A DNA stretch of 42,290 nt from a virus. Shown here in pieces: positions 3,182 through 30,423 of the stretch. The notes beneath the pieces were generated by a model. It was given only the letters and a program-made list of their open reading frames with translations. It was not told where the DNA came from and searched no databases. Both the position numbers and the translations under genes were made by a program. Position 1 is the stretch's first letter. Every line of letters starts with the position of its first letter. The stretch covers positions 1 to 42,290 of the IMG/VR virus record IMGVR_UViG_3300021387_000086. The stretch is one strand, 5' to 3'.

Positions 3182-3207
3182 AAAAAAAAAGCAGCCGGTC
3201 GGGCTGC
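3182..3207 (-). terminator. Intrinsic terminator ending the lipoprotein moron
   Basis: Minus strand GCAGCC-cgacc-GGCTGC followed by T9. Confidence 0.8.
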
Positions 3208-3223
3208 TCATTGAAAAGAATAA

Positions 3224-4516: not shown

Positions 4517-4538
4517 ACTTATCAATTATTAGACGGTG

Positions 4539-4546
4539 CAAAGTTA
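4539..4546 (-). promoter_or_regulatory. Bacteroides-type -7 promoter box (TAACTTTG) for the lipoprotein moron
   Basis: Minus strand GAAAAAAGTGTAACTTTGCACCGTCTAA, 22 nt upstream of ATG 4516. Confidence 0.65.
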
Positions 4547-4568
4547 CACTTTTTTCGGCATATACGCA

Positions 4569-4609
4569 AGAAAAGAGGCACAAAATATTGCATTTTATAC
4601 CTCTTTTCT
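4569..4609. terminator. Long hairpin (10-bp stem AGAAAAGAGG/CCTCTTTTCT), terminator-like, ending the tail-fibre/lysis operon
   Basis: Read directly. The 3' arm is U-rich on both strands. It lies between the stop at 4627 and promoter 4539. Confidence 0.5.
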
Positions 4610-4626
4610 GCTCTAAAACATAAAAT

Positions 4627-4845
4627 TTACCGTTTTCTCCGTCTCCGGATGGCACGTTGGCGGTAGTTCTTACCCCAGCGGTGGGACTTGCTGGTCACGT
4701 GGAAGTAATGGCAGTAATGGCATCGATAGACCGAACCCTTACTTCGTTCGTGATGCCGGCGAGCCAATGCCCGCACCACACGTTCCGCCTCCCCATACCG
4801 GGAGAACTGCACCTTGCCACACCTCGGACAATAACCAACGACCAT
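4627..4845 (-). CDS. Small basic zinc-ribbon protein
   Basis: CPRCG...CHYCH four-Cys pattern, C-terminus RQRAIRRRRKR. Confidence 0.6.
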   Translation of the reverse strand: MVVGYCPRCGKVQFSRYGEAERVVRALARRHHERSKGSVYRCHYCHYFHVTSKSHRWGKNYRQRAIRRRRKR

Positions 4846-5437: not shown

Positions 5438-6043
5438 CTATAAGAACGGTACAAATTTACGTGCAACAATGATATACGGTGCGGTCGCCGGGAACTTCTC
5501 CATCACCCAGCAGGCTACCTTAGCCAGCAGCAGTATCGCCGTGATCCAGAACCACCAGCTGCAGAACCGGTCATAGCCGGTGCGCGACTTCTCCACCACC
5601 TTCCGGTACTCGGACTGCAGGGTGTTGTACCGGTCGGCTATGCTGTCGGCGGAGTGCTTGTAGTCGGAAGCCAGCGCACGGTAGTAGTTCGTGCTGTCCC
5701 GTTGCTCATGGTGCGTGTCGGACTGCTGCACACCGGCTACGTTGGTCGCCTCGCCGGTCTTGCTGTTGTAGGTGCCGCCGCCCTGGGCGAACTGGATGAA
5801 CAGGCCGGAACTGTCGCGGACGGTGACGTGGTGCTCGATGATGTTCACGCTGTCCCGGATGTGCCACCGGATGCTGTCCTGCCAACGGATAGCCACCGAG
5901 TCGCGGATGTTGACATTCTCTGTCAGACTGCCGGGCGTCTTGCAGCTCGGGAAGAGCAGACACAGGGCAAGGGTGATGGCGAAAGCGGCTACCATGATCC
6001 AGAAGCCCCAGAAGCAACCGGTCGCGTCACGGTAGAGTCTCAT
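5438..6043 (-). CDS. Unimolecular-spanin-like protein (N-terminal lipobox plus C-terminal TM helix)
   Basis: LLFPSC lipobox at the N-terminus, FCSWWFWITAILLLAKVACWVM near the C-terminus, adjacent to the endolysin. Confidence 0.5.
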   Translation of the reverse strand: MRLYRDATGCFWGFWIMVAAFAITLALCLLFPSCKTPGSLTENVNIRDSVAIRWQDSIRWHIRDSVNIIEHHVTVRDSSGLFIQFAQGGGTYNSKTGEATNVAGVQQSDTHHEQRDSTNYYRALASDYKHSADSIADRYNTLQSEYRKVVEKSRTGYDRFCSWWFWITAILLLAKVACWVMEKFPATAPYIIVARKFVPFL

Positions 6044-6264
6044 ACCTCACCTCCTTCCTGCTCGGGTTCGGGTTGGGGATGCTCGCGGGCCAATTCTTGT
6101 TCATAGGCTACTTTGTCGGCGTCGGTGCATTGCAACCATGGCTCGGCATGAGGCGGCAGACCTACTTCATGTCGGAACATACGCGGTTCGTCTGCTTGGT
6201 CTTTGTACAGCCAGTCGAATCCCTCGTCCGGCGTTTGTACTCGTGTTGTAAATTCAGTTATCAT
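6040..6264 (-). CDS. Acidic hypothetical protein (74 aa)
   Basis: ATG at 6264 (track start 6288 is TTG); ATGA overlap with the downstream gene. Confidence 0.5.
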   Translation of the reverse strand: MITEFTTRVQTPDEGFDWLYKDQADEPRMFRHEVGLPPHAEPWLQCTDADKVAYEQELAREHPQPEPEQEGGEV

Positions 6265-6269
6265 AATCG

Positions 6270-7730
6270 TTATTTTGTTACAGTCCAATGTTTAATGTTG
6301 GTCAGATAGGCATAGATGGTCATGGTGCCCTCATCGAAAACGAACAGATGGCTTTCGTCTTTAATGGCATCATACACGGCTTGGGAGATGGTGAGGGTTG
6401 GTCCGTTGGAGTCGAAGGTAGCAAGGCGCAAAGCGATGTAGGTGCGGAAGTTCGAGAGGAACTGCTCAAGGTTGGAATCATCCAAGGTCGGAGACCACGA
6501 ACTCAATGGAAGACTACAATCTGTACCTTCTCCAAACTCAAAATGGATAAGGTTCACATTCGGTTGCAACGTGAAATATCCGGCAAGACTATGAATCGTT
6601 CCGAACTGAATTTTACGAAGGTTCACATAATTGGAACTTCCAAGGCTCGGAGAATATCCTACAATCCTCTCGCAGTCCGGCAATATCAACTCCTCTAAAG
6701 CCGGATAAGAACCGCTGATACATCCTCCGTTGTTAGCCTCAATAGCCGATAGACCATAAGCAACAAACCTCCGAAGATTAGCACTACCACCTGAAAGGAA
6801 TGAATTATAGCCCGTAGTCTCATAAGTAGAACCTTGTTCAAATACTACCGTCAATTCTTCTTGATCAGTATTGAACATCGAACAATACTCTAATGCTCCA
6901 TAGAAATGCACATGTTTCTTGAATACCAAGCGACGGAGTGCAGGAGAATAGATGCGGTGAATGTACCATGTCTCAAGGTTATCAAACACCATCTCCTCTA
7001 CGTTGCCTGTTATATTGATAACGTTACCTCCACCACGACTCCAACCAAGTGTCTTGACCTGTGGCATATGAAAGTGCGTAATGTTTGGTCCCCCATTGAT
7101 AACGACCACTTGCGCCGTTTGGCATCCAATCGTAATGCTCGTGAGGTTTGGCATCAGGGCTAATATACGAGATATAGTATCAGCAGCCAACTCTCCCCAT
7201 ACATTGTCATCTTCAAGTGTTGTTATTTGCAAAGACCTATCGCTAATTACACGAATGAGAGAAGAACCATCCGCGGCATCGGGGACACCGGAAATCTTGC
7301 GATCTGAGAGGAGAAGTGGAGCGGAGGGGAGGTCGGTGATGGACGAAAGGCGCGAAGGGATGCCGTAGGTCTCCGAACCCTGTAAGCGGGTGATGTAGTG
7401 GGACCACATGTCGGACAGCGAGCGGAGTGAGGCATCGTCCGACAGGGAGCGGAGAGTGCCTGTGCTGAAGGGGAACTGCCACAGCGCACGGAGCAGCAGC
7501 AGCAGGTTCGACTTCATCTGGGCGATGAACGACGCAAAGGTGTACGGTTTGTGCTGGGCAATGACCTCGGAATAGCCGTCATATCCGGCTTGGTGCAGGG
7601 CTTGCTGTTTCAACGGGTCAAGTGCTTCGTTCACCAGCGAACCGAAGTGCGGGTCTTGCGGCAGCGCAGACACCTCCGCTAATACGTCCTCGCCTCTGCA
7701 GGTCTCGATATTTTTCTTAATTTCACTCAT
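6270..7730 (-). CDS. Tail fibre / receptor-binding protein with leucine-rich-repeat-like C-terminal half
   Basis: 486 aa. Recurrent LRR-like segments: NLTSITIG, NITHFHMP, NVINITGN, LRRLVFKK, LRRFVAYG, LEELILPD, LRKIQFGT. Confidence 0.55.
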   Translation of the reverse strand: MSEIKKNIETCRGEDVLAEVSALPQDPHFGSLVNEALDPLKQQALHQAGYDGYSEVIAQHKPYTFASFIAQMKSNLLLLLRALWQFPFSTGTLRSLSDDASLRSLSDMWSHYITRLQGSETYGIPSRLSSITDLPSAPLLLSDRKISGVPDAADGSSLIRVISDRSLQITTLEDDNVWGELAADTISRILALMPNLTSITIGCQTAQVVVINGGPNITHFHMPQVKTLGWSRGGGNVINITGNVEEMVFDNLETWYIHRIYSPALRRLVFKKHVHFYGALEYCSMFNTDQEELTVVFEQGSTYETTGYNSFLSGGSANLRRFVAYGLSAIEANNGGCISGSYPALEELILPDCERIVGYSPSLGSSNYVNLRKIQFGTIHSLAGYFTLQPNVNLIHFEFGEGTDCSLPLSSWSPTLDDSNLEQFLSNFRTYIALRLATFDSNGPTLTISQAVYDAIKDESHLFVFDEGTMTIYAYLTNIKHWTVTK

Positions 7731-9749: not shown

Positions 9750-10322
9750 TTACTCCCCTGCGCCGCCTTCGGAACCGCTACCCGAACCGCTGCCGGAACC
9801 ACTGCCACTGCCGCTGCCGGAACCGCCGTGTATGATGGCTCTCGTGTCCGCCGTGATCGTGGCTGCTTGCTGTGGGGTGATATAGCCCATGTTCACGGCC
9901 ACATACTCCAGATAGTCGTACACATCGTCCTCGTCCATGAGGCCTACGGGTTCGACCACCTCCTCACCGCCATCCTCTGTCACCACCTTGACCGTCTCGC
10001 CATCCGAAACCAGGCCGAAGAAGGACTTGATGTCCGTTGCTGCATCCGACTCGACGGTATCGACGTAGATCTTGATGAGCAACTTATCACCCACCGCAAC
10101 AGGCGGAAGGTTGACGAACTGGAGCGTGTAGTTCCTGGTTCCATCCTCCAACGGCAAGGATTGAAACATCGTCATACTCATAAACTTGAGCGGCGTATAG
10201 ACAGCCTTGCCGGTTGTCTTATTGAGCACGCCAAGTATATTGTCCTTGGTCAGACCGGCGTCGTAATTGAAGTACGCCCGGTTGGCTTGTGTAGCCTCTA
10301 CATGTAGGATGATATCTCTCAT
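9750..10322 (-). CDS. Virion protein with C-terminal G(GS)9-EGGAGE tail
   Basis: 190 aa; tail encoded at 9753..9827 with mixed Ser codons (tcc, agc, agt, tcg). Confidence 0.65.
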   Translation of the reverse strand: MRDIILHVEATQANRAYFNYDAGLTKDNILGVLNKTTGKAVYTPLKFMSMTMFQSLPLEDGTRNYTLQFVNLPPVAVGDKLLIKIYVDTVESDAATDIKSFFGLVSDGETVKVVTEDGGEEVVEPVGLMDEDDVYDYLEYVAVNMGYITPQQAATITADTRAIIHGGSGSGSGSGSGSGSGSGSEGGAGE

Positions 10323-10324
10323 AA

Positions 10325-10915
10325 CTATAATACGATGCCTGCCGCCGCTAAGTCGTACAGGTCTTGGTTAACTTCATCTTGCGATTTCTCGAAATTCTCA
10401 TCATCGACCTCGTCCGTATCGTGGCGGTGACCGAGTTGGCTGTAGGTAGCATCCGCAACCTGTCTCCAGTCTTCGAAGGTAACGTAACCATCGGCGGTAT
10501 AGATAGACTCCTGACCGATGACACGTTGCGCAGCTACCGGAGCCGATAACTCGACCGTCACCTTCAGACCATTAGCCGCACTCGCTCCGGCTGTCGTGTC
10601 CTGCGTAGAGACCTCCGGAACAGAAGCCTTGCCGCCGATGAGCCACTTAGCTCCGGCAACCGTCTGCACGAGGAACACGTACCTCCCCGGCTTGAACTCC
10701 GAGAGGCAGGTGAACGTGAGCGTCACCTTCTGGTTGCCGCCGTTGTGCTCGTTGCTGTCGCTGATCACCAACTGACCATCGTCCAACACATAGAGCGCCG
10801 TGAACGTCAGACCGGCGATGTTCACCGGCAGACCTGCCATGCCCTGAATCTCGTAATCGTCCGGAACACTGGCTGCAGGGCAATATCCGATGTTCCTAAT
10901 GCCTGGTATTCTCAT
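10325..10915 (-). CDS. Hypothetical virion protein (196 aa)
   Basis: ATGA overlap with the upstream gene; beta-rich. Confidence 0.55.
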   Translation of the reverse strand: MRIPGIRNIGYCPAASVPDDYEIQGMAGLPVNIAGLTFTALYVLDDGQLVISDSNEHNGGNQKVTLTFTCLSEFKPGRYVFLVQTVAGAKWLIGGKASVPEVSTQDTTAGASAANGLKVTVELSAPVAAQRVIGQESIYTADGYVTFEDWRQVADATYSQLGHRHDTDEVDDENFEKSQDEVNQDLYDLAAAGIVL

Positions 10916-11472
10916 TTGCTGTGTTTTTTATTCCATTCTTGCTTATAGAGCCGGCGCCACATCTCGCTGATGGTGTGCTTGTGCTCGTAGTCGATGCCGT
11001 TATTCTCCATGAAGGCCTCGATGAACTCCGCCCGGTTCGGAGCGTACCCGCTTCGCACTGTTCTGCTACTGAAGATCACCTTACCCATGAACTTCGACAG
11101 CTCCATCCGGAAGTGGTTTCGGACGGTCTGCTCCAGCAGCTCCTCCGATGCCGGAGAGAGATAGTTGTAGTACTGCGTCGGTTTACCGAGAAATTCCGGA
11201 ATAAGGATGCAGATCGTTGCGTCCTTGGGAATAGGCTTCGGTATCGGGTCCGGCTGCTTCGCCAGACATTGCTCAAGTATCAGGTTCTCGATGGATCCTC
11301 TCCGGGTGACAACGACATCCAAATCTCTCGGTTCCACATCACACTCATACCGGAAAGGAGGCAGCGTCTTATTCTCATAGTTACGCAACCGGTGCATCTC
11401 ATGAGCGAACCACTGCGCCAGATAGCGCGGCCACCGAAGGTATAAGTAATATTTGTCTTGCCGTTTTTCCAT
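10912..11472 (-). CDS. Hypothetical protein heading the tail-fibre/lysis operon (possible late regulator)
   Basis: 186 aa; first gene after promoter 11489. Confidence 0.55.
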   Translation of the reverse strand: MEKRQDKYYLYLRWPRYLAQWFAHEMHRLRNYENKTLPPFRYECDVEPRDLDVVVTRRGSIENLILEQCLAKQPDPIPKPIPKDATICILIPEFLGKPTQYYNYLSPASEELLEQTVRNHFRMELSKFMGKVIFSSRTVRSGYAPNRAEFIEAFMENNGIDYEHKHTISEMWRRLYKQEWNKKHSK

Positions 11473-11865: not shown

Positions 11866-11925
11866 AACCGCCAATTCTTAAAAATGTACTATCTTTAAGA
11901 TTGGGCAGTGATTCAGAATCGGGTG

Positions 11926-11933
11926 CAAAGGTA
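11926..11933 (-). promoter_or_regulatory. Bacteroides-type -7 promoter box (TACCTTTG)
   Basis: Minus strand TGTCAAAAAAAAGTCGTACCTTTGCACCC. Confidence 0.6.
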
Positions 11934-12022
11934 CGACTTTTTTTTGACATATGCAAGTTTCGCCCGCATTTTTCCTATAGGAAGGAGAAAAAATTCTAGA
12001 AAGCCGGCTTCGCGAAAAATCT

Positions 12023-12154
12023 TGTTTCTTTGGGTTTAACTTACTTATTTATAGATACTTAGATAGAAACATTTAATGAAACAATATCGAAACATTGTGA
12101 AACACTTTGCACGCTAAAGAAACAAAATGAAACAAAATCGGTGCAAAATGTTTC
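12023..12154. repeat. GAAACA iteron array (six direct copies at 10-12 bp phasing, flanked by inverted TGTTTC copies)
   Basis: Direct copies at 12066, 12078, 12089, 12099, 12119 and 12129; inverted copies at 12023 and 12149. Confidence 0.8.
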
Positions 12155-12355
12155 GCGCTAAGTTGCTGATTTGTCGCATTTTAGAGCAGTTTGCCTACTT
12201 TGGAAACGAATTTTTCAAAAATCGGCGAGTTTTTAACCTCCTCCTACTTCTTATAATGGGGATAGGGCGTTAAAAAAAACGCCACCAAAAAGTGACGTTC
12301 CTTAATATTCGGCTCCGGCTTGCCGCCGTCGCCGGGAAAATTACCATCGGTCGGA

Positions 12356-12583
12356 TCACTGCGCTGCTGGTGACGGGTCAACCGGATGCAACTCCAGCTT
12401 CAGAGAGTAATGCTCATCGGAAACAGTGTCGAAGGTAGTAGTCAGACGCATCCTGCCACCTGCCTCCTCGACGAAGGTAAACTCCACCGGCTTGTGGTTC
12501 GGAGCTACGGACAGCGACAGAGTACGCAAGATCTTCCGAACACCGAGGTTCGAGAGATTGTCGGGGATAATGGCTTGTATCAT
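12356..12583 (-). CDS. Hypothetical protein (75 aa)
   Basis: Compact ORF 13 nt downstream of the preceding small gene. Confidence 0.5.
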   Translation of the reverse strand: MIQAIIPDNLSNLGVRKILRTLSLSVAPNHKPVEFTFVEEAGGRMRLTTTFDTVSDEHYSLKLELHPVDPSPAAQ

Positions 12584-12595
12584 AGCTGCACCCTC

Positions 12596-12799
12596 CTAAC
12601 ACATGAAGTTAATACAAAGGATCTTCCCGCCGATCATGGCCGTCATGGATGAATACGACTCATCCTGAACGAGTTGGGCTTTGACTGTCTCTCCTTCTGC
12701 CTTCAGACCGTTGGCAATCCGGAAGAGATGTTTCTTGATTTCATCGACATTGATGTTTTTCTCGATACGAAGGTTCGAGTTGTTTTCGCCTTGTAACAT
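12596..12799 (-). CDS. Hypothetical protein (67 aa)
   Basis: ATG 12799, preceded by the conserved leader motif. Confidence 0.5.
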   Translation of the reverse strand: MLQGENNSNLRIEKNINVDEIKKHLFRIANGLKAEGETVKAQLVQDESYSSMTAMIGGKILCINFMC

Positions 12800-12801
12800 A
12801 G

Positions 12802-12862
12802 CTTTTTAGTATTTAGACAAAATAAATATCGGTCACGACCCGCTGTCTAAGCTACTAAAAAG
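12802..12862 (-). promoter_or_regulatory. Extended imperfect hairpin sequestering the translation-initiation leader of gene 12596..12799
   Basis: TTAGACA (12813-12819) pairs with TGTCTAA (12845-12851), AGTA with TACT, and CTTTTT with AAAAAG. Confidence 0.45.
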
Positions 12863-12934
12863 AAGAGCTCGAGCGACCATTACAGTCAACTCACGGGTGT
12901 AACCGATACTACAATTCTGGTTAGACTGAGCATT

Positions 12935-12956
12935 AAAAAAAACCGCTCACTTGCGG
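12935..12956 (-). terminator. Terminator/attenuator about 50 nt downstream of promoter 12991
   Basis: Minus strand CCGC-aagtga-GCGG followed by T8; the stem is short. Confidence 0.45.
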
Positions 12957-12990
12957 CAGACTTCTCTCAGTCGCCCTTCTTTTATTTAAC

Positions 12991-12998
12991 TTAGACGG
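12991..12998 (-). promoter_or_regulatory. Bacteroides-type -7 promoter box (TATCTTTG)
   Basis: Minus strand TGTCAGAAAAAAGCAGTATCTTTGCACCGTCTAA. Confidence 0.6.
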
Positions 12999-13340
12999 TG
13001 CAAAGATACTGCTTTTTTCTGACATGACCAAATTTTTCGGCAAAAAAATGCGCTAACTCTTTCATTTTTCCGAAAATTAGCCGTTTTTTTGACATTTGTT
13101 TACTCACTTTTCTTCAATTCTTCCATAATTTGGAAAATTGAAAGCCTTGAAAAATCAGGGGGTGACAGGGGGAATTATCGAAAAAATTCCCCTTGTTTGC
13201 CTCAATCGAGCCCCCGCACTGCCTGCGTCTTGGGCGAGGAGCGCGCTTCATTTGGAAGCGGAATATGCAGAGGGGTTCGGGAAAGGAGAGAGTTCGACCG
13301 CGAGAGAGGTTCGCGCTGATGAACGAGATAGTCCACACGC

Positions 13341-13550
13341 GAGGACTATGGAGTTAGCGCGTGAGGTCTATGGGTTAGCACGCAAGAGTTTTTGCTCGAC
13401 ATAGGGGGAGGTTCGGAGGTGCGAGTTATACAATGAGTTATAACCCGAGTTATCGCGAGTTATTGCGTGAGGTCTATGTGTGGGGTCTATGGGTGAGGTC
13501 TATAGGCACATATAGAAAGAGTGCAACCTACAAAGAAAAAGGTGCAACCT
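13341..13550. repeat. Composite iteron region (GAGTTAT x4, GRGGTCTATR x4-5, GTGCAACCT x2)
   Basis: GAGTTAT at 13423, 13435, 13447 and 13457. GAGGTCTATG-type copies at 13363, 13469, 13482 and 13495. GTGCAACCT at 13521 and 13542. Confidence 0.85.
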
Positions 13551-13605
13551 AATAGGCTACACCTTGCGGGTTTTTGCTCATCTTATAAATGAGACAAGCA
13601 AAGGG

Positions 13606-15379: not shown

Positions 15380-15613
15380 TTAGATCATGACCTCACAGCC
15401 GTTGACGGACATGATGAGGATATCGCGGATGGTACGGCACTGGCCGCTGTCGAGCTGTTTGATGCGGCGGGTACCTTTGTACAGGTCGAATTTCAGCCCG
15501 ACGCAGTTGTTAATCTCCAGTCGCCGGCCGTCCTTTGTCAGGACTATCAGGTCCACCGGATCAGGACGCTTGAGCATGTCCCGGACGGTGGTGATGTGTA
15601 TTCGTTGTGCCAT
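15380..15613 (-). CDS. Hypothetical protein (77 aa)
   Basis: ATG 15613, 3 nt after the stop of the PLD-like gene. Confidence 0.5.
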   Translation of the reverse strand: MAQRIHITTVRDMLKRPDPVDLIVLTKDGRRLEINNCVGLKFDLYKGTRRIKQLDSGQCRTIRDILIMSVNGCEVMI

Positions 15614-15615
15614 GT

Positions 15616-16143
15616 TTACTGCATTTTGATGTTGTATAACTCTTTCAAGGGTACCGAATGCCGGTCGCGTATCTCGGTGAAGGACTCCATGAGCTTCCGG
15701 AAGACGCCGGGATCGGTGGTGATGATAGCGGACTCGTGGCGGTTGCCTCGGGTGAGGTTCTGCGAGGTGATGATTGCCACCTGTGTCACTGTTCCGGCGG
15801 TATCGGACTCCAACAGGATGAGCTTCGAGTGATTGTCGGCGAGGTAGAGCCTGTTGATGGTCTGCACGAGGAACGGCCAGAGGCGCAGCGTCTTGTTGGT
15901 GGCTTTATGGTCAAGGACCAATTCGACTTGGGAGACCTTGCCGGACTTCTGGAGGTGCCATAACCGGCGGACGAACTCCTCGGAGATGGAGAACGATGTC
16001 TGCCGGAGGGAGACTTGGCCATCCATCTGCGCCATCGCCCATTCGACCACATCCGCCACCTGCAGTGTATTGGTGAGATACGCCTGCAGGGGGCTTTCGG
16101 ATAACGGGAACAGGACGCTGTCAACTGCCTTATTGCTCGTCAT
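15616..16143 (-). CDS. PLD-superfamily (single HKD, Nuc-like) protein
   Basis: ATG at 16143 overlaps the upstream gene end. NHSKLILLESD...VAIITSQNLT matches H-x-K...[GS/TS]-x-N of phospholipase-D/Nuc enzymes. 175 aa, similar to the size of Nuc. Confidence 0.55.
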   Translation of the reverse strand: MTSNKAVDSVLFPLSESPLQAYLTNTLQVADVVEWAMAQMDGQVSLRQTSFSISEEFVRRLWHLQKSGKVSQVELVLDHKATNKTLRLWPFLVQTINRLYLADNHSKLILLESDTAGTVTQVAIITSQNLTRGNRHESAIITTDPGVFRKLMESFTEIRDRHSVPLKELYNIKMQ

Positions 16144-16717
16144 CCACCGGCGGATAGGTATCGTATTTCTCCCAGTTAGCGTGATAGCGAGCGTCGAGCT
16201 CGATGATCTCCTTGACGAACGGATAGCGGTCGCCATCCGGACAGTTGGACTGATTCTCCGGAAGCGTGAGCAGTACGAGCTGCGCATGGCAGGCACGCAT
16301 GTTCTGCATCAGACTCAGGTTCTCGGCGTAGAGTGCCTGGATCTCTTCCGGAAGACGGTCGTGGTCGGGGCGCTTGCCGAGTTTGAAGTCATCGGTCTTC
16401 TCGATACGCTTGAGTACCGGCGCTTTGTCTTTGCCGGGAAGGGGTGCATTGAGACCTCTTTCGGCGGTGATGACGGTGACCTTGCGTGTCATCTGCACCA
16501 TATCCTCGTGCGTCACACCGGCTAAACGCATCGGCAGACGCTTGTTCAGTTGGTACTCCACCATCTTCATATACTTCTTGGGAAGCCTTTGGAAATTACC
16601 GGCGAGGATCTGGTTGCGAACTATCACGCGCACCAACCGTGCACCGGTCTCAATGTCTCTCTCCTCCGCAGGGGTATTCAACCACTGCTGAAGGTCTTTA
16701 GTTAATTTCTCGTCCAT
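16130..16717 (-). CDS. Hypothetical protein (195 aa) between the PRTase and PLD-like genes
   Basis: ATG at 16717 (MDEKLTKDLQQWL); the track start 16759 lies inside the repeat array. Confidence 0.55.
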   Translation of the reverse strand: MDEKLTKDLQQWLNTPAEERDIETGARLVRVIVRNQILAGNFQRLPKKYMKMVEYQLNKRLPMRLAGVTHEDMVQMTRKVTVITAERGLNAPLPGKDKAPVLKRIEKTDDFKLGKRPDHDRLPEEIQALYAENLSLMQNMRACHAQLVLLTLPENQSNCPDGDRYPFVKEIIELDARYHANWEKYDTYPPVDDEQ

Positions 16718-16736
16718 AATGATTGCTTTTTTGCTA

Positions 16737-16825
16737 CCCCCGGGGGTTAGGGTATGCAAACCCCGGGGATTATGGTATACAAACCCGGGGGGTTAGGGTA
16801 TCAAACCCCTATGGGTTATTATTGG
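16737..16825. repeat. Four tandem ~23-bp repeats, each starting with a CCCCGGGG-type palindrome
   Basis: Units at 16737, 16761, 16784 and 16806: CCCCCGGGGGTTAGGGTATGCAAA / CCCCGGGGATTATGGTATACAAA / CCCGGGGGGTTAGGGTATCAAA / CCCCTATGGGTTATTATTGG. Confidence 0.9.
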
Positions 16826-17490
16826 TTGTCCACGCCTACGATATAAAGGATGTTCTTGCCTTGTGGAGCGAGTAGGCGGTTCATCGCTCCGAGGGTCGAG
16901 CCGGTGGTGACGAAATCGTCAAAGCAGATCAGGTTCGCTTCATCCGGAATGTCTCCGGGCTCGAAGTCCACGCCGATGCGCTGCTTGGTGCGGGCGATCG
17001 CCACATCCGGACGGTAGGGAACTCCCAGCCTGCGCGCCATCTCCTCGGCGACCATACAGGCGAAGTTACGTTCCTTGTGCCGGCGGCGCGGGGTGGTGAT
17101 CACTGCCCAATCGCCTTGCCGGAGGTGTGTGCCGAGTACCGACTGCAGTGTCGGAACGAGTGCATTCACGAAGATGGGAATCATGGCATCGTCGGCTTTG
17201 ATCTCCGCGAGGGTCGGACCCTTGACGGTACGCTTCCAGATAGCTATGATCCGAAGCCCGACCTTGGGGAAGAGGTGCACATGTTCCTCGGAGAGGTCAC
17301 ACCGGGCGATATCCGCATGTTCGGCATGCCACGCCTTCCGGGGACCACCTTCGGCAAACAGGTCTTTGAGAGCCTGGTTACCGTCTCCTATGGAATCAAG
17401 AATGTCGGAGAATCCTGTCGGCCGAATGGTTACGGACTCCAGAACCTCCGACATCGACGGTAACTGAGCTATGTCAGGGTCGAGTAACAT
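16819..17490 (-). CDS. Type-I phosphoribosyltransferase-fold protein (ComF-like)
   Basis: PRPP-binding motif NLICFDDFVTTGSTLGA. An upstream PRRRHKERNFACMVA resembles the ComF RGFNQ region. ATG 17490 overlaps the TGA of the preceding gene (TGATG). Confidence 0.65.
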   Translation of the reverse strand: MLLDPDIAQLPSMSEVLESVTIRPTGFSDILDSIGDGNQALKDLFAEGGPRKAWHAEHADIARCDLSEEHVHLFPKVGLRIIAIWKRTVKGPTLAEIKADDAMIPIFVNALVPTLQSVLGTHLRQGDWAVITTPRRRHKERNFACMVAEEMARRLGVPYRPDVAIARTKQRIGVDFEPGDIPDEANLICFDDFVTTGSTLGAMNRLLAPQGKNILYIVGVDNQ

Positions 17491-18119
17491 CACTCGCCGC
17501 TGCCGCTGCCACTACCACTACCCTGCTCGTTGATGGTGCCGTCCTCGGTCTCGATCTCACCCTCATAGAAGGGAGCCGGAATCAGGTCGGTATGCTCGAC
17601 GTTGATGGTGGTCGTAGCCTTGCCGGTAGCACCTTGGCCATTGTCCTGTGCAACCGTGGCATTGCCCTGCCATTTGTCGTTACCGATCATACGGAACTTG
17701 CCATCCATATCCTGAACGAGAACGACCACGTCGTTGTTGTTCAGATAAGCAGCAGCCATCGTTGCTGCAGCATCCACTGCCGGGTGAACGGCGGTGAGCT
17801 TGTTGAGTTGCGTCTGGCTCGGCTTCTCGCCTTGGGCCTCGGAGGTCAACGAAGAATCGTTAACGAGGACATCGATGTGGTGGAACACCTTATCGGCTGC
17901 CATCTCGAACGAACCCTCCAGAACTGCGGAGGTCGGACGACCGAACTCATCTACCGGCAGCGTCGGCCACTTGGTGATGTTCGACTTAGCCGTGTAGTAC
18001 AGGCGGCGACGAATACCGGGGAGGACAGGCTTGCCCTCGCACCAACTCAATGAACCCTCAAGGGGTGAACAATTCGCTTTAGGCATATTCGTAATTGTTA
18101 ATGGTTTGACAATTGGCAC
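17490..18119 (-). CDS. Virion structural protein with C-terminal (GS)4-GE tail
   Basis: Immediately downstream of the capsid gene. The track start 18119 is GTG; an ATG at 18086 with an A/T-rich leader is an alternative start. The tail is encoded at 17493..17522. Confidence 0.65.
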   Translation of the reverse strand: MPIVKPLTITNMPKANCSPLEGSLSWCEGKPVLPGIRRRLYYTAKSNITKWPTLPVDEFGRPTSAVLEGSFEMAADKVFHHIDVLVNDSSLTSEAQGEKPSQTQLNKLTAVHPAVDAAATMAAAYLNNNDVVVLVQDMDGKFRMIGNDKWQGNATVAQDNGQGATGKATTTINVEHTDLIPAPFYEGEIETEDGTINEQGSGSGSGSGE

Positions 18120-18153: not shown

Positions 18154-19176
18154 TTACTCACCGCTTCCGCTTCCGGAACCCGAGCCGCTGCCCGAACCCG
18201 AACCTTCAGCACCGTAGAGCTTAGCTACGAGCAGACGGCGAGGATCGATGGACTCGAACTCTACACCGAAGAACATCGTAGCGACATACTCCAAGGTGAA
18301 TGCACTGAAGTGCTCGATGATCACGCTCTCGGTATCGGACATGAGGTCCACACCAATCAGCATGTTCTCCTTGGTGGTCAGGTGGATGTACGGAGAATCC
18401 TCCTTGCTCGACAGAGCTACGATCTCGCAGCGGCCGTTCGAGCCCTCGAGGATGTGCTGCTCGAAGCCCTTAACCCACGGCGTTGCGTTGTGGGTAGCGA
18501 AGTACGCATCTTCGTAAGCGTCCAGGATGTCCTGCGTTACGAACATGATCGTCTTCTGGCGACGGAGCTCGCGGTTAGCACTACGGTAGAGTTTCTTGAG
18601 AACATCTACCGCGTTGGTCTCGTCGATAGCCTCCTCCAGCTCGACATAGTTGCCTTTGCCGGCTGCGATAGTACCGGCGGTGATCTCCTTCGTCGTGATG
18701 GTGTCCCAACCGTTGAAGAGGTCAGCCGTGGTGGTACCGTTAGCCTTGCGGACTGCAGACCACAGAACAGCGTTGAGGTTCTCGCTCAACTTCTTGCAGA
18801 TCTCGACGAGGACAGCCTTCACGATCTCTGCGTTCTTCATCGCCTCACCCTTGGTCGCAGCCTTCTGACCGATGACCATGGTAGCGACGGAGTTCGGCTC
18901 GAACTCATAGTCAACTGCACCCATGAAGGTCTCCAGCTCGCGGAAGCTGAGTTCAGCGTCTTTACCGGCTTTGATGTCGTGCTTGTACGGACGGAACTGC
19001 GCATCGAGCGACAACGAACCTACCGTCTCCTTGTAGCGAATGCCGTAGCGAACGCTAACGTAGGGCATGATCTCCTCCAAACCGGTTACAGGCAATGCAA
19101 GAAATTCCTTGCGCCACTTGGTAGCAGCCTCTTGATACGCTTGAAGCTGCTCTCCAGTAATTTTACCTACAGGCAT
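18154..19176 (-). CDS. Major capsid protein with C-terminal (GS)7-GE tail
   Basis: 340 aa, directly after the protease/scaffold gene. The sequence resembles major capsid proteins of Bacteroidales prophages (from memory). The tail is encoded at 18157..18204. Confidence 0.8.
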   Translation of the reverse strand: MPVGKITGEQLQAYQEAATKWRKEFLALPVTGLEEIMPYVSVRYGIRYKETVGSLSLDAQFRPYKHDIKAGKDAELSFRELETFMGAVDYEFEPNSVATMVIGQKAATKGEAMKNAEIVKAVLVEICKKLSENLNAVLWSAVRKANGTTTADLFNGWDTITTKEITAGTIAAGKGNYVELEEAIDETNAVDVLKKLYRSANRELRRQKTIMFVTQDILDAYEDAYFATHNATPWVKGFEQHILEGSNGRCEIVALSSKEDSPYIHLTTKENMLIGVDLMSDTESVIIEHFSAFTLEYVATMFFGVEFESIDPRRLLVAKLYGAEGSGSGSGSGSGSGSGE

Positions 19177-19207: not shown

Positions 19208-20323
19208 TTACTTCAGCATTTCGCGAGCCTTGGCGAGAGTCTCAGCCAATGCCTCTGCCGGAGATTTTTCCTCGGCGTCTTGGTGTTGGCCACCCGCTTC
19301 TACTACTTGCTGTGCCTTTGCAGCCGGACGTGCCTCCAACTCCGCAATGCGGGCTTCAGCGGCTGCCAACTTCGTCTCGGCATCTGCCTTGGCGGTCTCA
19401 GCAGCGGTCTTTGCCGCTTCTGCAGCCTCTTTGTCTGCCTTAGCCTGAGCCAAAGCGTCCTCGAGAGCCTGAACCTGAGCTTCGTCCAAAGCATAACTGC
19501 CGCCCTCTTTCGGCTCCTCCAGAGCCTTGAGGTTCGCAGCAGCCAATACAGCTGCTACCATCAGAAATACTTTTTTCATAACAGTTGTTTGAGTTGAGCT
19601 ATCAGGGTTGGCATCCGGTTCTGCCACTGCCTGGGCGGTAGTAGCCTCCTTCTTGCCGAACCATTTCTTGAACATCGCTTCCAGCTGCGCGAGCCAACCG
19701 TCCGCCTCGACCGGCATGTTATCCGGAAGAGGAATACCGGCAGCGGCCATTGCGTTTGCAACCGTCTGCGTGAGTTTCACATCCTCGGTACTGTCGATGA
19801 CCTCATCCACGAAGCCCCAATCCAATGCCTCCTGTGCGGTCAGCCATTTCTCCTCACGCATCAGGTCGAGAAGATCCTTCACCGGTTTCTTGCACCGGTC
19901 AGCATACGCGGTGGCGATGGTCAGATCAATCTTCTCCGCATCGGCAGCGGTCTTCATGTACTCCGCTGCTTTCTCCTTCAGCTGGTCGGCATTGAGAGCA
20001 GACCACTCGAAGATAGGGAACGAGCACTTGTGCACGAGGTACATCGCGTTCTTCTCGATGGCGATGTGCTTGGCTCCCATCGATGCGATAGTAGCGGCAC
20101 TCGCGTTCATGCCTCGATAATAGACATGCACGTTACCATGGTTAGCAAATGCAGAGGAAACAGACAGGGCGGTAGCGACAGAGCCACCGAGCGAGTCAAT
20201 GAGTACCGACACTTCTTTGTCGGCTGCTTTATCCAGAACATAGTCAACATAGTCGGAATCGAAGTCCCAACTGCCGACATAGCCTTTAAGTTTCAAATCG
20301 AATTTCTTTGCCATAGCGCACAT
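19208..20323 (-). CDS. Prohead serine protease (ClpP/S14-S49-like) fused to a coiled-coil scaffold domain
   Basis: DSLGGSVATAL and GMNASAATIASMG...LVHK match the ClpP-type pattern. Ala/Glu/Lys-rich C-terminus AEAAKTAAETAKADAETKLAAAEARIAELEA. Start is ATG 20323 or 20314, since the track start 20500 lies upstream of the promoter. Confidence 0.8.
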   Translation of the reverse strand: MCAMAKKFDLKLKGYVGSWDFDSDYVDYVLDKAADKEVSVLIDSLGGSVATALSVSSAFANHGNVHVYYRGMNASAATIASMGAKHIAIEKNAMYLVHKCSFPIFEWSALNADQLKEKAAEYMKTAADAEKIDLTIATAYADRCKKPVKDLLDLMREEKWLTAQEALDWGFVDEVIDSTEDVKLTQTVANAMAAAGIPLPDNMPVEADGWLAQLEAMFKKWFGKKEATTAQAVAEPDANPDSSTQTTVMKKVFLMVAAVLAAANLKALEEPKEGGSYALDEAQVQALEDALAQAKADKEAAEAAKTAAETAKADAETKLAAAEARIAELEARPAAKAQQVVEAGGQHQDAEEKSPAEALAETLAKAREMLK

Positions 20324-20346: not shown

Positions 20347-20418
20347 CAACACCGGTCGCGCGACTGGCAAGTTCAATATAAACAGGAAAAACGCACGTCT
20401 CGCGTGCGTACGTAGAAC

Positions 20419-20490
20419 CGGAAAGAAACGGAAAGAAACGGAAAGATTTTTCTTTTTTCCGGAAAGAATTCGGAAAGAAACGGAAAAGAA
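20419..20490. repeat. Six copies of CGGAAAG(AAA) upstream of the head-operon promoter
   Basis: Copies at 20419, 20429, 20439, 20460, 20471 and 20481. Confidence 0.85.
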
Positions 20491-20522
20491 AAGGGGACAA
20501 ACTACCTTCCGTAGCTGTCCCC
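20481..20522 (-). terminator. Intrinsic terminator ending the early/replication operon
   Basis: Minus strand GGGGACA-N16-TGTCCCC followed by TTTTCTTTTCC. Confidence 0.7.
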
Positions 20523-20577: not shown

Positions 20578-21351
20578 TTATTCACCCGGCCACTCAAAGC
20601 GTGAGCGTTCCGGGAATAACTCTTTGAGATATTCCTCCACTCCGGAATGGATGGCAGAGTCGTATATCGAGAAGGCGATATCATTCTGGAGCAAGGCAAA
20701 ATCCTCGTCGGTATTGAGGTGCTGGAGTTTGATATCCTTGCGACAGAAGGTATTAATGTCGAGATAATGACGGCGGTAGATCAATGCCGCGATGGGCGAG
20801 TTGCACGACAGACCGTAACGGCTGTTGAACATCGAATCCTCGAAGTCTGCAACATACGGCCAGTTGTGCAGTTCATCCCATGCTTCACGGGTGTAGAGCT
20901 TGTTGATGTGCCCTTCCCAGTACCGAAGATCGAGAGCAAACTTCTCCATGAACGCCCGGGTGTCCGCCATCGTCTTCGTGTACCGCTTATCGCCTACGCC
21001 CTTGGTAGTATCTTTGGGCATCTCCTTCCCCTTATAGAACAGTGGCCACTTCTCCAAGTCCACCGGACGAATCAGGAAATGGTCATCGGAGGAGAGAAGG
21101 AACCTCTCTACCTTAGACATCTTAAACAGCCGGCACAACTTGTAATAGACATTCAGCGCCGGTTTGTTCGTCGTGATATCTCTCACATGGAGATACCGCA
21201 CGGTCGATGGGTTAATGAACGGTGGCAACTCATCGCCAACTATATACACCTCACCGAGGTTTGCGCCGAACTTAGCTATCGAGCGCAGGGAATAGCGCAG
21301 CTCATTATTATCCCACTTCGAGCCTGTACCTATTATATATACTACATCCAT
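20578..21351 (-). CDS. Stealth-like (CR1/CR2) sugar-1-phosphate transferase
   Basis: MDVVYIIGTG resembles Stealth CR1 (D-V-V-Y-T-W-V). NELRYSLRSIAKFGANLGEVYIVGDELPPFINPSTVRYLHVRDI parallels the CR2 core ELRYSLRS...IVT.GQ.P.WL...V..V.H.DI. SSDDHFLIRPV resembles NDD.F..RP. Confidence 0.6.
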   Translation of the reverse strand: MDVVYIIGTGSKWDNNELRYSLRSIAKFGANLGEVYIVGDELPPFINPSTVRYLHVRDITTNKPALNVYYKLCRLFKMSKVERFLLSSDDHFLIRPVDLEKWPLFYKGKEMPKDTTKGVGDKRYTKTMADTRAFMEKFALDLRYWEGHINKLYTREAWDELHNWPYVADFEDSMFNSRYGLSCNSPIAALIYRRHYLDINTFCRKDIKLQHLNTDEDFALLQNDIAFSIYDSAIHSGVEEYLKELFPERSRFEWPGE

Positions 21352-21353
21352 AA

Positions 21354-23960
21354 TCAGAACGGAACTTCAGTTTGTGAATCCTCTTGTTTGGTAGCCGGCG
21401 ACTGTGCTGCAGCTGAGTCGGGTTTCGCGCGGCGTTTCTTCATCTCCTCCAGATCTGACGGAGTGACAAAGTACTCGGCGGAGAAGATAAACGGACGACA
21501 TTGCTTGGACTCATGCGACCAATAAACGCTTCCTATATCTGCCTTCGAACCGTTGGCTTTGTCGGTTTCGGTAATGCGCATGGCAAAGCGTACGCGGTGG
21601 CTGTCCGGTGACTTGGTCACGCCCGGCATGTCGGAAAGCAGATTCCGGATGTACTGCTGATCCTTGCGGGCTGCGTCCGGAACATACTTCTGAATATACT
21701 CGGTGTCGAACTCCAGCTTCATTGCGCCGGTATCGCGGAACATCTCGCCAAGGAACTCGATGAGCGAGCCCTCGAAGTTGGATGCAGTACCCGCCATCAT
21801 GGTCGCAAGGTCGTCGTTCATGATACGCTTGGGGTCGAACCACATACGGCTGCTACCCTCTCGTTCCTGAACGAACATCTGCTTAGAGTTGAACCGCTTC
21901 TGCAGGAAGTACAGGAATGCTGGCACTTCCTCCTCTATATACTCCGAATACTTCTTTGTTGGGTCGTCTCCCTCGAGCAGTCCGTTATCACTCGCCCAGG
22001 GCGACAGTCTCATCACCCAGAAGCGGATCTCGTCCTTGGCAATGAAAACAGCCTTGCGGACCTCGTTAGAACAGAGGACAAACTTGAGGAACGACGGAAC
22101 CTCCTGCTTATCCTTACCCTTGCGCTCGACGAGGATGGTCTGTGTGGTGGAGAGGTACTTGAGCTTCTCACCAACGGCTTTATTCTCACCCAGGCAGGAC
22201 TCGTCGATGCCGACGATGAGTTTGCCGGCAAGCATAGAGTTGAAGTTCGTATCGAGCAGGTTGTTATCGCCGATGACGGTATTGTTACCGAAGATCGCCT
22301 TGAGCAGGTTGAGGAAGGAGGTCTTACCGGTGGCACGGTCACGACTGACGAGCATGATAATCGGCAGGAACTCCCTCGGGTAGAAGTACGCGACGGTGAT
22401 CCAGTCCAGCAGCATCTCGTAGTAATGGAACTTATCTTCCGGGTACTCCTTGGTGATCTGGCGCAGCAGCTTCTCGATGTGCGGCCATTTACCTTGCACC
22501 GGCTTCGAGGGCAGCGGGCTGTAGATGTTATAGAAACGGTAGTTCTGCGAGTTGATTATCTCGCGGCTGTAGTTGACATGATCCGGCTCGACGGTCGTCG
22601 ATATGAAGTGCTTGTACTTGTACAGCTTCTCCGATGTGCCTTTGCCGTATTGCGCATTGATGACCTTATCGGCGATGGTGTAGAAGTCCTGCACCGTGCC
22701 CGATTTGGCTCCGGGGATGGGCTTCTCCGTCACCAGCACTATCTCCGAACCGATGGCGACATAGTCCTTGAGCGATTGGTCCAGCAGCTGCACCAGTTTC
22801 TTCTCGCTCTCGAGGTAGCGGTAGGTAGCACCCTTGTAACGGAACTCGTGTCCTTTGATCTGCGGCTCCCATGCCTTGTAGAAATCCTCCGGCGACTGCA
22901 GGTTGAAGATTGCCCGGATGTTACCATCGTTGCAGGTACGCAGGTTCTTCTTGACGAAGTAGATACCTGTGCGGCCCGGATGATTGAGGTCATCGGCAAT
23001 GGCGGTGATCTCGTCCTTGAACTTATCTTCGACGATGAGGTCATCCAGTCCCTTGGGGCTATTGTTGACGGTGTACGGCTCGCCGGTACGCTCGTCGATC
23101 AGTTCCTCATCCTCGAACATCTTATTGACATACGCAAAGAAGATCTCGCAGGGGTTGCCCTGTGCGTTCTTGAACTCCAGCAGCAAGTCCTTCAGATTGA
23201 GCAAGGAGTGCATGAAGGCTTGCGGACGCTTGGAGAGGTCCGGCGTCTCACGCCATGTCTCCTTGCTGCCTGTCTTCCACGGGTTAGTGCAGTCACCGTC
23301 GTACAGGATGATGATGTTATCCGGCTTGACGGCGTTGAGGAAACGAACGATATCCGGATAGAGCTGCTTGGTCTTACCGTCCTTGTAGAGCGTGACCGAA
23401 CCGAGACCGATGACCGCCATGCCGTGAACGGAAGCCACCATCGCCTTCATGTAGCCCTCGGTGAGGATCACGGTCTCGATGTGCTCGCCCTTCAGATACT
23501 TGCGGTACAGTTCCGGCGGGAAGAAAGGATACGTGCCCTTCTTGGTCTCGCCGCCGGGGTACTTGTACTTGCCGGCATCCTTATCTGACTTCTTCGCCTC
23601 CTCCCAGTTCTTTGGCGACAGACGGGTGATGTAGTACAGATCCTCCACTTCTCCGTCGCTGTACTTGGGCTGCTTATCCCGGGTATAGGAGATGAGTCTG
23701 CCTTCGAGGGTATAGGGGTACATCCGAATGTTGTCATCCTGATCAGACTGGAAGAGTGGCCACTGCGGTACCAGTGTCCCCTCTCCGTTATCGGCCATAT
23801 AGACACGACCCATACCGATGGACTCGTCAAAGTCCTCCGGGTTGTGCCATTCGGCTACTTTCTTATGCCACTTCAGGGGTAGTGAGACCTGCTCACGGGT
23901 CAGACCACACAGGTCAAAGACGCGCTCCTGGAGATAGCTCTTTGTCTTCTCCTCTGCCAT
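21354..23960 (-). CDS. Toprim primase fused to an SF3 (P4/D5-type) replicative helicase
   Basis: 868 aa. ILTEGYMKAM (Toprim Glu), IIILYDGD (DxD), SRDRATGKTSFLNLL (Walker A), LIVGIDES (Walker B). Confidence 0.85.
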   Translation of the reverse strand: MAEEKTKSYLQERVFDLCGLTREQVSLPLKWHKKVAEWHNPEDFDESIGMGRVYMADNGEGTLVPQWPLFQSDQDDNIRMYPYTLEGRLISYTRDKQPKYSDGEVEDLYYITRLSPKNWEEAKKSDKDAGKYKYPGGETKKGTYPFFPPELYRKYLKGEHIETVILTEGYMKAMVASVHGMAVIGLGSVTLYKDGKTKQLYPDIVRFLNAVKPDNIIILYDGDCTNPWKTGSKETWRETPDLSKRPQAFMHSLLNLKDLLLEFKNAQGNPCEIFFAYVNKMFEDEELIDERTGEPYTVNNSPKGLDDLIVEDKFKDEITAIADDLNHPGRTGIYFVKKNLRTCNDGNIRAIFNLQSPEDFYKAWEPQIKGHEFRYKGATYRYLESEKKLVQLLDQSLKDYVAIGSEIVLVTEKPIPGAKSGTVQDFYTIADKVINAQYGKGTSEKLYKYKHFISTTVEPDHVNYSREIINSQNYRFYNIYSPLPSKPVQGKWPHIEKLLRQITKEYPEDKFHYYEMLLDWITVAYFYPREFLPIIMLVSRDRATGKTSFLNLLKAIFGNNTVIGDNNLLDTNFNSMLAGKLIVGIDESCLGENKAVGEKLKYLSTTQTILVERKGKDKQEVPSFLKFVLCSNEVRKAVFIAKDEIRFWVMRLSPWASDNGLLEGDDPTKKYSEYIEEEVPAFLYFLQKRFNSKQMFVQEREGSSRMWFDPKRIMNDDLATMMAGTASNFEGSLIEFLGEMFRDTGAMKLEFDTEYIQKYVPDAARKDQQYIRNLLSDMPGVTKSPDSHRVRFAMRITETDKANGSKADIGSVYWSHESKQCRPFIFSAEYFVTPSDLEEMKKRRAKPDSAAAQSPATKQEDSQTEVPF

Positions 23961-24786: not shown

Positions 24787-24860
24787 AGAGGGATGAGGTT
24801 TTCGACTCCTCGACCTCCGGGTTAATACCCTGGCGCTCTTACCAGCTGAGCTAATCCCCC
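24787..24860 (-). tRNA. tRNA-like gene with non-canonical anticodon and T loops (anticodon ATT if the loop is 7 nt)
   Basis: Minus strand GGGGGAT-TA-GCTC-AGCTGGTAA-GAGC-G-CCAGG-GTATTAA-CCCGG-AGGTC-GAGGA-GTCGAAA-ACCTC-ATCCCTC-T. The acceptor and D arms are good. There is an A-C mismatch in the anticodon stem, an A-A at 53:61 and G54 in place of T54. No CCA is encoded. Confidence 0.55.
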
Positions 24861-30312: not shown

Positions 30313-30423
30313 AACAGTTTTAAGTGGTGTGACGATGGCCAATCGCTCTTTCTTATTCTCAATTTCGGCACGAGGACGGCACGCAGCCGTCCGAGATGAT
30401 CCAAAACAAGAAATGTTTAACTG

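Follow-up and report, generated by a model that had tools for sequence, protein, structure and literature searches.

A distinct class of phosphoribosyltransferases (PRTases) encoded by phages and conjugative elements has been catalogued, linked to ComFC and assigned a role that was called "enigmatic" (Iyer, Burroughs, Anand, de Souza and Aravind, 2017, J Bacteriol; PMC5512222). The subject of this analysis is a set of three adjacent genes in the head operon of a virus, IMG/VR record IMGVR_UViG_3300021387_000086, of which the whole stretch of 42,290 nucleotides (the window) was studied. The genes encode a phosphoribosyltransferase-type protein (PRT), a protein of 195 aa (unk195) and a PLD-superfamily protein (PLD). 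Like the invasive-element PRTases, PRT is encoded by phages, lies near late or packaging genes, occurs solo or fused and carries the catalytic DD motif; its partners, however, are ParB_N and PLD rather than MuF, and its hosts are Bacteroidales, whereas theirs are Proteobacteria or Verrucomicrobia. The catalogued enzymes are presumably the basis of the Pfam family PRTase-CE (PF24390). That study describes no constant pairing of these enzymes with a helical protein and a PLD protein, and PLD or HKD proteins receive no mention in it (PMC5512222).

ComFC and GntX share with PRT a type-I PRT core, the phosphoribosyl pyrophosphate (PRPP) loop, preceded by a motif that resembles Pxxx(R/H)xxRxF (by eye), and an association with DNA handling; the DprA-like neighbours of PRT in other phages parallel the ComFC-DprA pairing. 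PRT differs from ComFC in having no zinc finger and in scoring far below the cut-offs of the family models. ShosT is, like PRT, a stand-alone PRTase domain with a DprA-like partner in some contexts, but ShosTA is a host toxin-antitoxin pair, whereas PRT stands in a phage late operon between GS2, a head-operon protein with a glycine-serine (GS) tail, and unk195, with no adjacent DprA-like gene in the window.

For PLD, the closest described proteins are Nuc/NucT, Zucchini/MitoPLD, BfiI, NgoAVII and the N-terminal domain of SauUSI, which have the same fold (Foldseek prob 1.0, TM ~0.6). As in these single-HKD nucleases, each chain of ~175 aa carries one HKD motif with invariant H, K, S/N and E, and by analogy PLD is expected to dimerise and so build one active site. 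Identity to them is 12-19%, and PLD is set apart by a block that is invariant within its own family (QTSFSISEEFxRRL), by a helical partner gene that looks obligate and by a terminase-side position; nuclease activity is predicted for it. HNH endonucleases of the HK97 gp74 type reportedly adjoin terminase genes as well. In many phages they too are encoded, as small nuclease-fold proteins, directly ahead of the genes for the small and the large terminase subunit, although their fold is unrelated and the likeness to PLD is positional. The same terminase-side slot is used by DNA methyltransferases with a ParB domain, which share the ParB_N module with the adjacent PRT fusion in three loci (L098, L116 and L143); their catalytic domain differs from PRT, and their methylation chemistry is known.

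The component folds, and phage PRTases as a class, are not new. Not found described are the fixed set of PRT, helical protein and PLD in a very large family of Bacteroidales prophages, the way in which the PLD pair accompanies one type of terminase in different phyla (Bacteroidota and cyanobacterial phages), and the ParB_N-PRT and PLD-PRT fusions beside DNA methylases. Literature searches on PRTase-CE, or on PRTase with PLD in Bacteroides prophages, returned nothing, and those on PLD with terminase and packaging nothing relevant; in agreement with the original prediction, no described system with the PRT-unk195-PLD arrangement was found. Two questions follow from the set: is a PLD nuclease required by this terminase, and can a protein of PRTase fold act on DNA? 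The answers would also be relevant to competence proteins of the ComFC type, in which the part played by the PRT domain is unexplained.

The genes for PRT, unk195 and PLD belong to the conserved core of a large family of temperate Bacteroidales phages and stand where the head genes meet the packaging genes. The survey covered 11 IMG/VR loci reached through PRT and 80 genome loci reached through the PLD profile (258 genome hits in the whole scan), the latter from Paludibacteraceae, Prevotella, Leyella, Xylanibacter, Muribaculaceae, Bacteroidaceae and Alistipes; presence was counted in the 74 loci with enough upstream sequence. The order shared by all of them is [g186-g196]-ClpP-MCP-GS2-PRT-unk195-PLD (MCP, major capsid protein). 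Unk195 is present in 73 of the 74 loci and PRT in 72, and L084 lacks PRT only; the co-occurrence of PRTase and PLD, which the original prediction named as a check, is seen in the same 72 loci and again in a PLD-PRT fusion described below. Identity to the window proteins is 53-67% for PLD, 61-67% for the large terminase subunit (TerL), 56-80% for GS2, 43-66% for MCP, 37-65% for PRT and 37-70% for unk195. PLD is thus conserved to the same degree as TerL, and identities of this order mark the three genes as core genes rather than a moron. Prophages of this family occur widely among Bacteroidales of the gut and rumen, and the three genes, which have no assigned function, are among the best-conserved late genes of the family.

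The fourth gene of the cassette as first proposed, g77, is not part of the set. PLD is followed directly by a 92-aa protein, a 205-aa protein and TerL in 43 loci, and in the window and 32 other loci a block is intercalated after PLD, with g77 at its head and a DUF6712 protein and a 181-aa protein at its end; in L038, L080, L083 and L084 the block lies after TerL instead. Because it follows PLD or TerL in different relatives, g77, which has no family match in Pfam, PHROGs, NCBIfam or PADLOC, belongs to the next, movable block.

In the window, the four minus-strand open reading frames (ORFs) do follow the two GS-tailed proteins, and the coupling claimed for GS2 and PRT is exact: the TGA stop of GS2 (17492-17490) and the ATG of PRT (17490-17488) have one base in common, giving TGATG. 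The ATG of PLD overlaps the end of unk195 by 16 nt. Between 15200 and 18200 the coding strand has no terminator-like site, the PRT-unk195-PLD genes have no promoter or terminator signal of their own in excess, and their GC content is uniform and close to that of the neighbouring genes. Given spacers of 0-100 nt, the missing terminator-like sites and the uniform GC content, one late transcript is the simplest reading, and it is reasonable to infer that the four genes are co-transcribed with the head genes.

The sequence of PRT includes NLICFDDFVTTGSTLGA, and its PRPP loop in the window reads LICFDDFVTTGST. The loop, DDFVTTG(S/Q)T, is invariant among 25 family members, which share a second motif, TTPRRRHxxRNF; it shows the hallmarks of PRPP loops, namely a hydrophobic run, two acidic residues and TTG-x-T. 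Against Pfam Pribosyltran the window protein reaches 16.7 bits (E 0.0047; cut-off 26.3), and 23 of the 25 members match this family, the best with E 1.5e-4 and fusion members with values down to 2.3e-7. Searched against the PDB, the family profile recovers type-I PRTs only, all of them aligned on the PRPP loop, and the loop aligns with those of APRT, PurR and HGPRT. Through the PRPP loop alone, a type-I phosphoribosyltransferase fold is thus supported at the level of sequence. That part of the earlier description stands, but its label "ComF-like" is not favoured over generic PRT: NCBIfam comF (TIGR00201) gives 14.6 bits where 233.55 are needed and GntX 16.1 against 304, the family has one conserved Cys (C64) rather than a four-Cys zinc finger, and Helicobacter pylori ComF (7p0h) scores no better with the PRT profile than PyrR, HPRT or PRPP synthase. 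The first ~40 residues are a variable extension. An initial search found 678 clusters, and the profile matched only 335 among 1.84 billion representatives; the family is narrow and well apart from housekeeping PRTs. PHROGs held no match for PRT, unk195, PLD or g77, and searches of the PDB with single sequences came back empty. Among 50,697 deposited phage genomes neither PLD nor PRT had a tblastn match, megablast of the region also found none, and NCBIfam and PADLOC returned only PRPP-loop noise for the four proteins.

Elsewhere, every PRT context recovered is phage or prophage, beside head or terminase genes, with PRT solo or fused. N-terminal extensions occur in 47 of the 147 PRT representatives first returned (150 were listed), and 21 of the 47 match Pfam ParB_N (best E 8e-10); compared with structures, the fusion profile finds the N-terminal domains of ParB, Spo0J and Noc (E down to 5e-12). 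In one representative, P0434, a domain of the same family as PLD is joined to PRT (hhalign prob 87.5%, E 3.6e-6; HMM E 5e-7, PLD positions 7-147), and P0443 is a second, weaker case. Across seven other phage lineages (gene orders in Table 1) the recurrent partners of PRT are DNA-engaging domains, DNA-modifying enzymes and terminase genes. Small DprA/YAcAr SLOG genes adjoin PRT in four of these loci (L098, L099, L104 and L116), which repeats the ComFC-DprA and ShosT-ShosA pairing. In an abundant lineage, with 37 IMG/VR loci, an epimerase/dehydratase gene overlaps the start of a solo PRT (L178, 4169-4996; L165, 4199-4975).

PLD carries the motifs DNHSKLILLE...IITSQNLTRGNRHES, and the HxK(x)4D...(G/T)SxN pattern of the superfamily is found as NHSKLILLESD...ITSQNLT. 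Residues H105, K107, S127, N129 and E137 are invariant among 24 aligned members of a family of at least 3000 protein clusters. The window protein scores 24 bits against Pfam PLDc_2 (cut-off 27), and PF13091 is precomputed for many members. Since the PLD profile found nothing relevant among PDB sequences, the fold was established through a structure model. The AlphaFold2 (AF2) model (pLDDT 86.6, pTM 0.85) has SauUSI, NgoAVII, NucT, Zucchini and BfiI as its top Foldseek matches (E 2e-6 to 6e-5), and the 41 PDB matches with E <= 1e-3 all belong to the PLD superfamily, except three to the archaeal chromatin protein TrmBL2. The single-HKD PLD-superfamily fold named in the original prediction is well supported by this model and by the invariant motif residues, and the ranking of folds favours the nuclease type.

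Unk195, the presumed partner of PLD, carries the motifs GKRPDHDxLPxxIQALY and CPDxDRYPFxKEIIxLDxxYxxNWxxYD. Its AF2 model is all-helical (pLDDT 91.6) and has no fold match in the PDB; in BFVD it matches two uncharacterised Siphoviridae proteins only.

The PLD gene also accompanies the terminase far outside the Bacteroidales family. Of the window proteins, TerL alone finds counterparts in deposited phages (32% identity to an annotated Microcystis phage TerL), and distant PLD homologues were recovered through the neighbours of TerL with local hidden Markov models (HMMs). In four phages the gene directly before those for a small protein, a ~210-aa protein and TerL encodes a PLD homologue. Microcystis phage Mea-Yong924-1 has it under the annotation "polyphosphate kinase" (hhalign prob 96%, E 5e-9); the HMM matched it with E 2e-15 in faecal phage MT835542, with E 7e-5 in Flavobacterium phage FPSV-F7 and with E 3e-3 in Flavobacterium phage laban6-1 (gp033, PF13091 being cited in the record note). 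In each, a helical ORF of 226-328 aa precedes the PLD gene and overlaps its start, and none of the four has a PRT. Bacteroides phage BT-TP2 (L096) has a DNA methyltransferase in the PLD slot, upstream of a helix-turn-helix (HTH) protein, a 226-aa protein and TerL. From these comparisons the pair of helical protein and PLD appears to be an old companion of this terminase type, older than PRT, which probably joined it in the Bacteroidales lineage, where head and packaging genes meet. In BT-TP2 a PLD-type endonuclease also overlaps the end of the portal gene; the two observations on this phage, methyltransferase and endonuclease, concern 10324-10998 and 19355-20056.

Taken with some caution, the reading that we prefer is that PRT, unk195 and PLD form a terminase-side module that processes or marks DNA. 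A late, DNA-directed activity on the replicated genome is the most likely function because the PLD pair travels with the terminase and PRT is fused to, or adjoins, DNA-engaging genes. The trio would be expressed late and would act on the replicated phage genome around packaging. The PLD pair would bind DNA and nick or cut it, as a positional analogue of the terminase-associated HNH nucleases, and PRT, with PRPP or a 5-phosphoribosyl ligand, might mark or handle that DNA, to which it would be brought via PLD here and via ParB_N elsewhere. The folds, the conserved catalytic motifs, the gene order, the fusions and the independence from GS tails are observed; we infer DNA as the substrate and the producer cell as the place of action, together with whatever chemistry the proteins may perform. 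Two further points were counted in favour, the methyltransferase in the PLD slot of BT-TP2 and the binding of single-stranded DNA by ComFC, a PRT-domain protein (PMC9005727).

Several observations weigh against this DNA-directed module. No sequence feature marks DNA as the substrate, and PRT could, by analogy with ShosT, be a small-molecule enzyme (PMC11961720). The published MuF-PRTase fusions point to delivery in the virion (PMC5512222). The PLD-PRT fusion consists of one solid and one weak representative, and the non-nucleases phosphatidylserine synthase (PssA) and PPK1 are also among the top fold matches of PLD. Homology of unk195 to the distant helical ORFs is marginal, with one match of E 1.6e-4 over 38 residues and none to the two others tested. 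In the window and 32 relatives, PLD and the TerS-like gene are 6-18 kb apart. TerL has conserved D350, D406 and D517 in its C-terminal half, so that a second nuclease is not obviously needed. As TerL keeps these invariant acidic residues, a role of PLD as substitute for a degenerate TerL nuclease is unsupported; no structure was matched by the TerL nuclease domain.

The main rival, somewhat unlikely on balance, holds that the proteins are early effectors delivered by the virion: made late, packed in the capsid and injected with the DNA, they would make or sense a nucleotide in the new cell, deal with the DNA as it enters, or attack the DNA of the host or of rivals. The position of the genes inside the head operon fits delivery, as does the translational coupling of PRT to the conserved GS2, and the variable N-terminus of PRT could be a targeting segment. 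The phage and conjugative-element PRTases include MuF fusions and solo forms near late genes, for which a role at DNA entry was proposed (Iyer et al., 2017; PMC5512222). Weak matches to PRTase-CE were obtained for 11 of the 25 PRT members (best E 0.0086; ~0.005 over all PRTase-CE matches), but all such matches lie under the gathering score, the highest seen being 17.2 bits against a cut-off of 27. Delivery is also opposed by the fact that no MuF domain, portal fusion, capsid-targeting signature or protease-site signature was found, by the company of PRT in other lineages, which is TerS and DNA methylases rather than head proteins, and by the PLD pair of the distant phages, which goes with terminase genes and not capsid genes.

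Action in the cytoplasm, as counter-defence or in the nucleotide economy, is unlikely. PRT would salvage bases or alter nucleotide pools late in infection, for example against abortive infection that depletes nucleotides, and PLD would be an unrelated nuclease degrading host DNA. Classical PRT chemistry, in which a base is joined with PRPP, suits this explanation, and a NAD-dependent sugar epimerase precedes PRT in two lineages. A stand-alone PRTase, ShosT, reshapes purine metabolism (PMC11961720), and the sole PADLOC match was a weak one to ShosT (E 0.0019), over 32 residues of the PRPP loop. PADLOC offered nothing beyond it, however, and it would leave unexplained both the ParB_N and PLD fusions and the fact that the terminase-side place is kept in eight or more phage lineages; moreover, the trio is late and fixed, whereas anti-defence genes are usually early and variable.

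A more specific form of the DNA-directed module, in which PRT and the unk195-PLD pair would be a new DNA-marking system whose packaging-coupled hypermodification protects the genome in the next host, is improbable. PRT would then transfer 5-phosphoribosyl from PRPP onto DNA, or exchange a base, PLD would carry out phosphodiester transfer or trimming on the adduct, and the ParB_N-PRT proteins found beside ParB_N-methyltransferases would perform the same chemistry, delivered by a ParB clamp.

The original prediction had offered, as one of its two explanations, a defence or anti-defence moron inserted into the late operon, and this, taken as a recent event, is now very unlikely. Both flanks of PRT are real insertion hot spots, with 0.3-1.9 kb of extra DNA in ~12 relatives (at the PRT|unk195 junction in L006-L008, L012, L060, L075, L076 and L089, at the GS2|PRT junction in L068, L073 and L090), and PRT is missing from L084 and from the distant PLD-bearing phages. 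These absences make it probable that PRT itself entered by insertion, but long ago: the set stands in the same place in 72 of the 74 relatives, at 37-89% identity and with invariant catalytic motifs, has the GC content of its neighbours and no promoter or terminator signal of its own, and yielded in PADLOC only the weak ShosT match.

The spacer between PRT and unk195 had been described as a four-unit array of CCCCGGGG. The array exists approximately, as three uninterrupted C-run/G-run palindromes (CCCCCCGGG, CCCCGGGG and CCCCCGGGGG) and one interrupted one (CCCATAGGGG), but the exact octamer occurs only twice. The degenerate pattern of the unit has 3 matches against 0 expected from shuffles. 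A degenerate copy is present in L013, and the close relatives L004 and L005 lack the repeat and have a spacer of 6 nt; it is lineage-specific filler at an insertion hot spot. A terminator or attenuator was considered and rejected: the hairpins are not terminator-like on the coding strand, their RNA fold z-score is only -2.0, and close relatives lack them.

The GS tails follow another gene. The C-termini of the MCP and GS2 homologues were taken from all loci, and among those surveyed (GS)n tails occur only in L004, L013, L021 and the window, the same loci that have a homologue of the Stealth gene, which in the window lies upstream of ClpP. A search seeded with Stealth added L183 and L184, both GS-tailed, which brings the covariation to 6/6 (Stealth-bearing relatives L004/L182, L013, L021, L183 and L184). 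The C-terminal end of the g190 homologue in L004 is GGSGSGEGGEGGSGSGSGE. The covariation is not simple clade membership, because L005, with an MCP 86% identical to that of the window, has neither Stealth nor GS repeats, whereas L021, with an MCP only 67% identical, has both. At least 60 relatives carry PRT-unk195-PLD with no Stealth and with plain MCP and GS2 C-termini (for example ...KVVKLKSA and ...INPKKAA), and the trio is therefore independent of the tails; a tie between the enzymes and GS-tailed capsid genes, as first suggested, fails, with tails in 6 loci only and the trio in more than 70. The other original explanation, phosphoribosylation and phosphodiester chemistry on the Ser residues of the tails, is hardly credible: PRT does adjoin a GS-tailed gene in the window and is translationally coupled to it, but the tails come only with Stealth, the PLD pair is also found in Flavobacterium and Microcystis phages (capsid C-termini there not compared), and PRT relatives are fused to DNA-binding ParB domains.

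If the GS tails are modified at all, the candidate enzyme is Stealth. Proteins of this family are hexose-1-phosphate transferases, and Ser-linked GlcNAc-1-phosphate is documented in Dictyostelium proteinase I; we know of no phosphoglycosylated phage capsids. An (X-Ser)n glycofibril is proposed to carry the same linkage (bioRxiv 10.1101/2025.09.30.679562). The covariation suggests Ser phosphoglycosylation of the capsid surface, and it is possibly a more surprising lead than the enzyme set.

Table 1. Features of the window (positions of the 42,290-nucleotide stretch) and gene orders around PRT in other phage lineages (positions of the respective locus).
Feature or locus	Position	Strand	Remarks
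g190, 190 aa	9750-10322	-	Third late-operon protein with GS-rich tail GSGSGSGSEGGAGE, 9753-9794
g324, g154, g104	3' of g77, in that order	-
g77, 77 aa	15380-15613	-	Conserved protein, first of the next block
PLD, 176 aa from ATG	15616-16145	-	Single-HKD PLD superfamily, nuclease type (predicted)
unk195, 195 aa	16130-16717	-	All-helical protein (model)
23-bp tandem repeat, 3.2 copies	16738-16809		Tandem Repeats Finder (TRF) score 109; G/C palindromic hairpins
PRT, 223 aa from ATG	16819-17490	-	Phosphoribosyltransferase-type, PRPP loop
GS2, 209 aa	17490-18119	-	Head-operon protein, C-terminal end (GS)4GE; tail 17493-17522; coupled to PRT
MCP	18154-19176	-	C-terminal end (GS)7GE; tail 18157-18204
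ClpP-type head protease/scaffold	19208-20323	-
Stealth_CR2 protein	20578-21351	-	Hexose-1-phosphate transferase family; between primase-helicase and head protease
Primase-helicase, DUF5906	21354-23960	-	5' of the head genes
Large terminase TerL, 542 aa	37618-39246	-	phrog_2; profile match to the P74-26 TerL ATPase domain
205-aa conserved protein	39250-39867	-	Between small HTH protein and TerL
92-aa small protein	39867-40145	-	Counterparts: terminase small subunit (Microcystis phage), HTH protein (BT-TP2)
L098			ParB-N6/N4 methylase, ParB-PRT, DprA/SLOG (opposite strand; 2981-3448, -), HTH protein, TerL
L099			TerL, PRT, SLOG (2399-2728, -)
L178, L165			NAD-dependent epimerase, PRT, TerS, TerL
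L143			TerS, ParB-PRT, S-adenosylmethionine (SAM) synthetase, ParB-methylase
L116			TerS, ParB-PRT, YAcAr SLOG (5863-6285), ParB-methylase
L104			SLOG (4429-4812), ParB-PRT
L135			PRT, one gene, TerL

Some further features of the window were observed. Directly after TerL comes a tape-measure-like protein of 1303 aa (PhageMin_Tail), then one of 608 aa and then the integrase, which is an unusual gene order (33694-39246, minus strand), and neither Pfam nor PHROGs allowed a portal gene to be recognised anywhere in the window. About 1.7 kb of the late operon (~11,900-13,600) holds only very small ORFs, and an Rfam scan at the gathering threshold found no RNA family there. A tRNA in the early region (24787-24860, minus strand) is recognised by Rfam, with 43.3 bits against a gathering score of 29; ARAGORN reported no tRNA in the window. 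Two tandem repeats of 10-11 bp (20414-20491), AGAAACGGAA x3.3 and CGGAAAGAAA x3, come after the Stealth gene and before the start codon of ClpP and may act as a regulatory element where the head genes begin. Short direct repeats, perfect or near-perfect, are found at 30289-30314, 30548-30569 and 30575-30609 (core AAAATCGGC; ATGTTAACAG x3.5), just upstream of the integrase gene (30618-31889, plus strand), and may be arm-type or attP-related sites.

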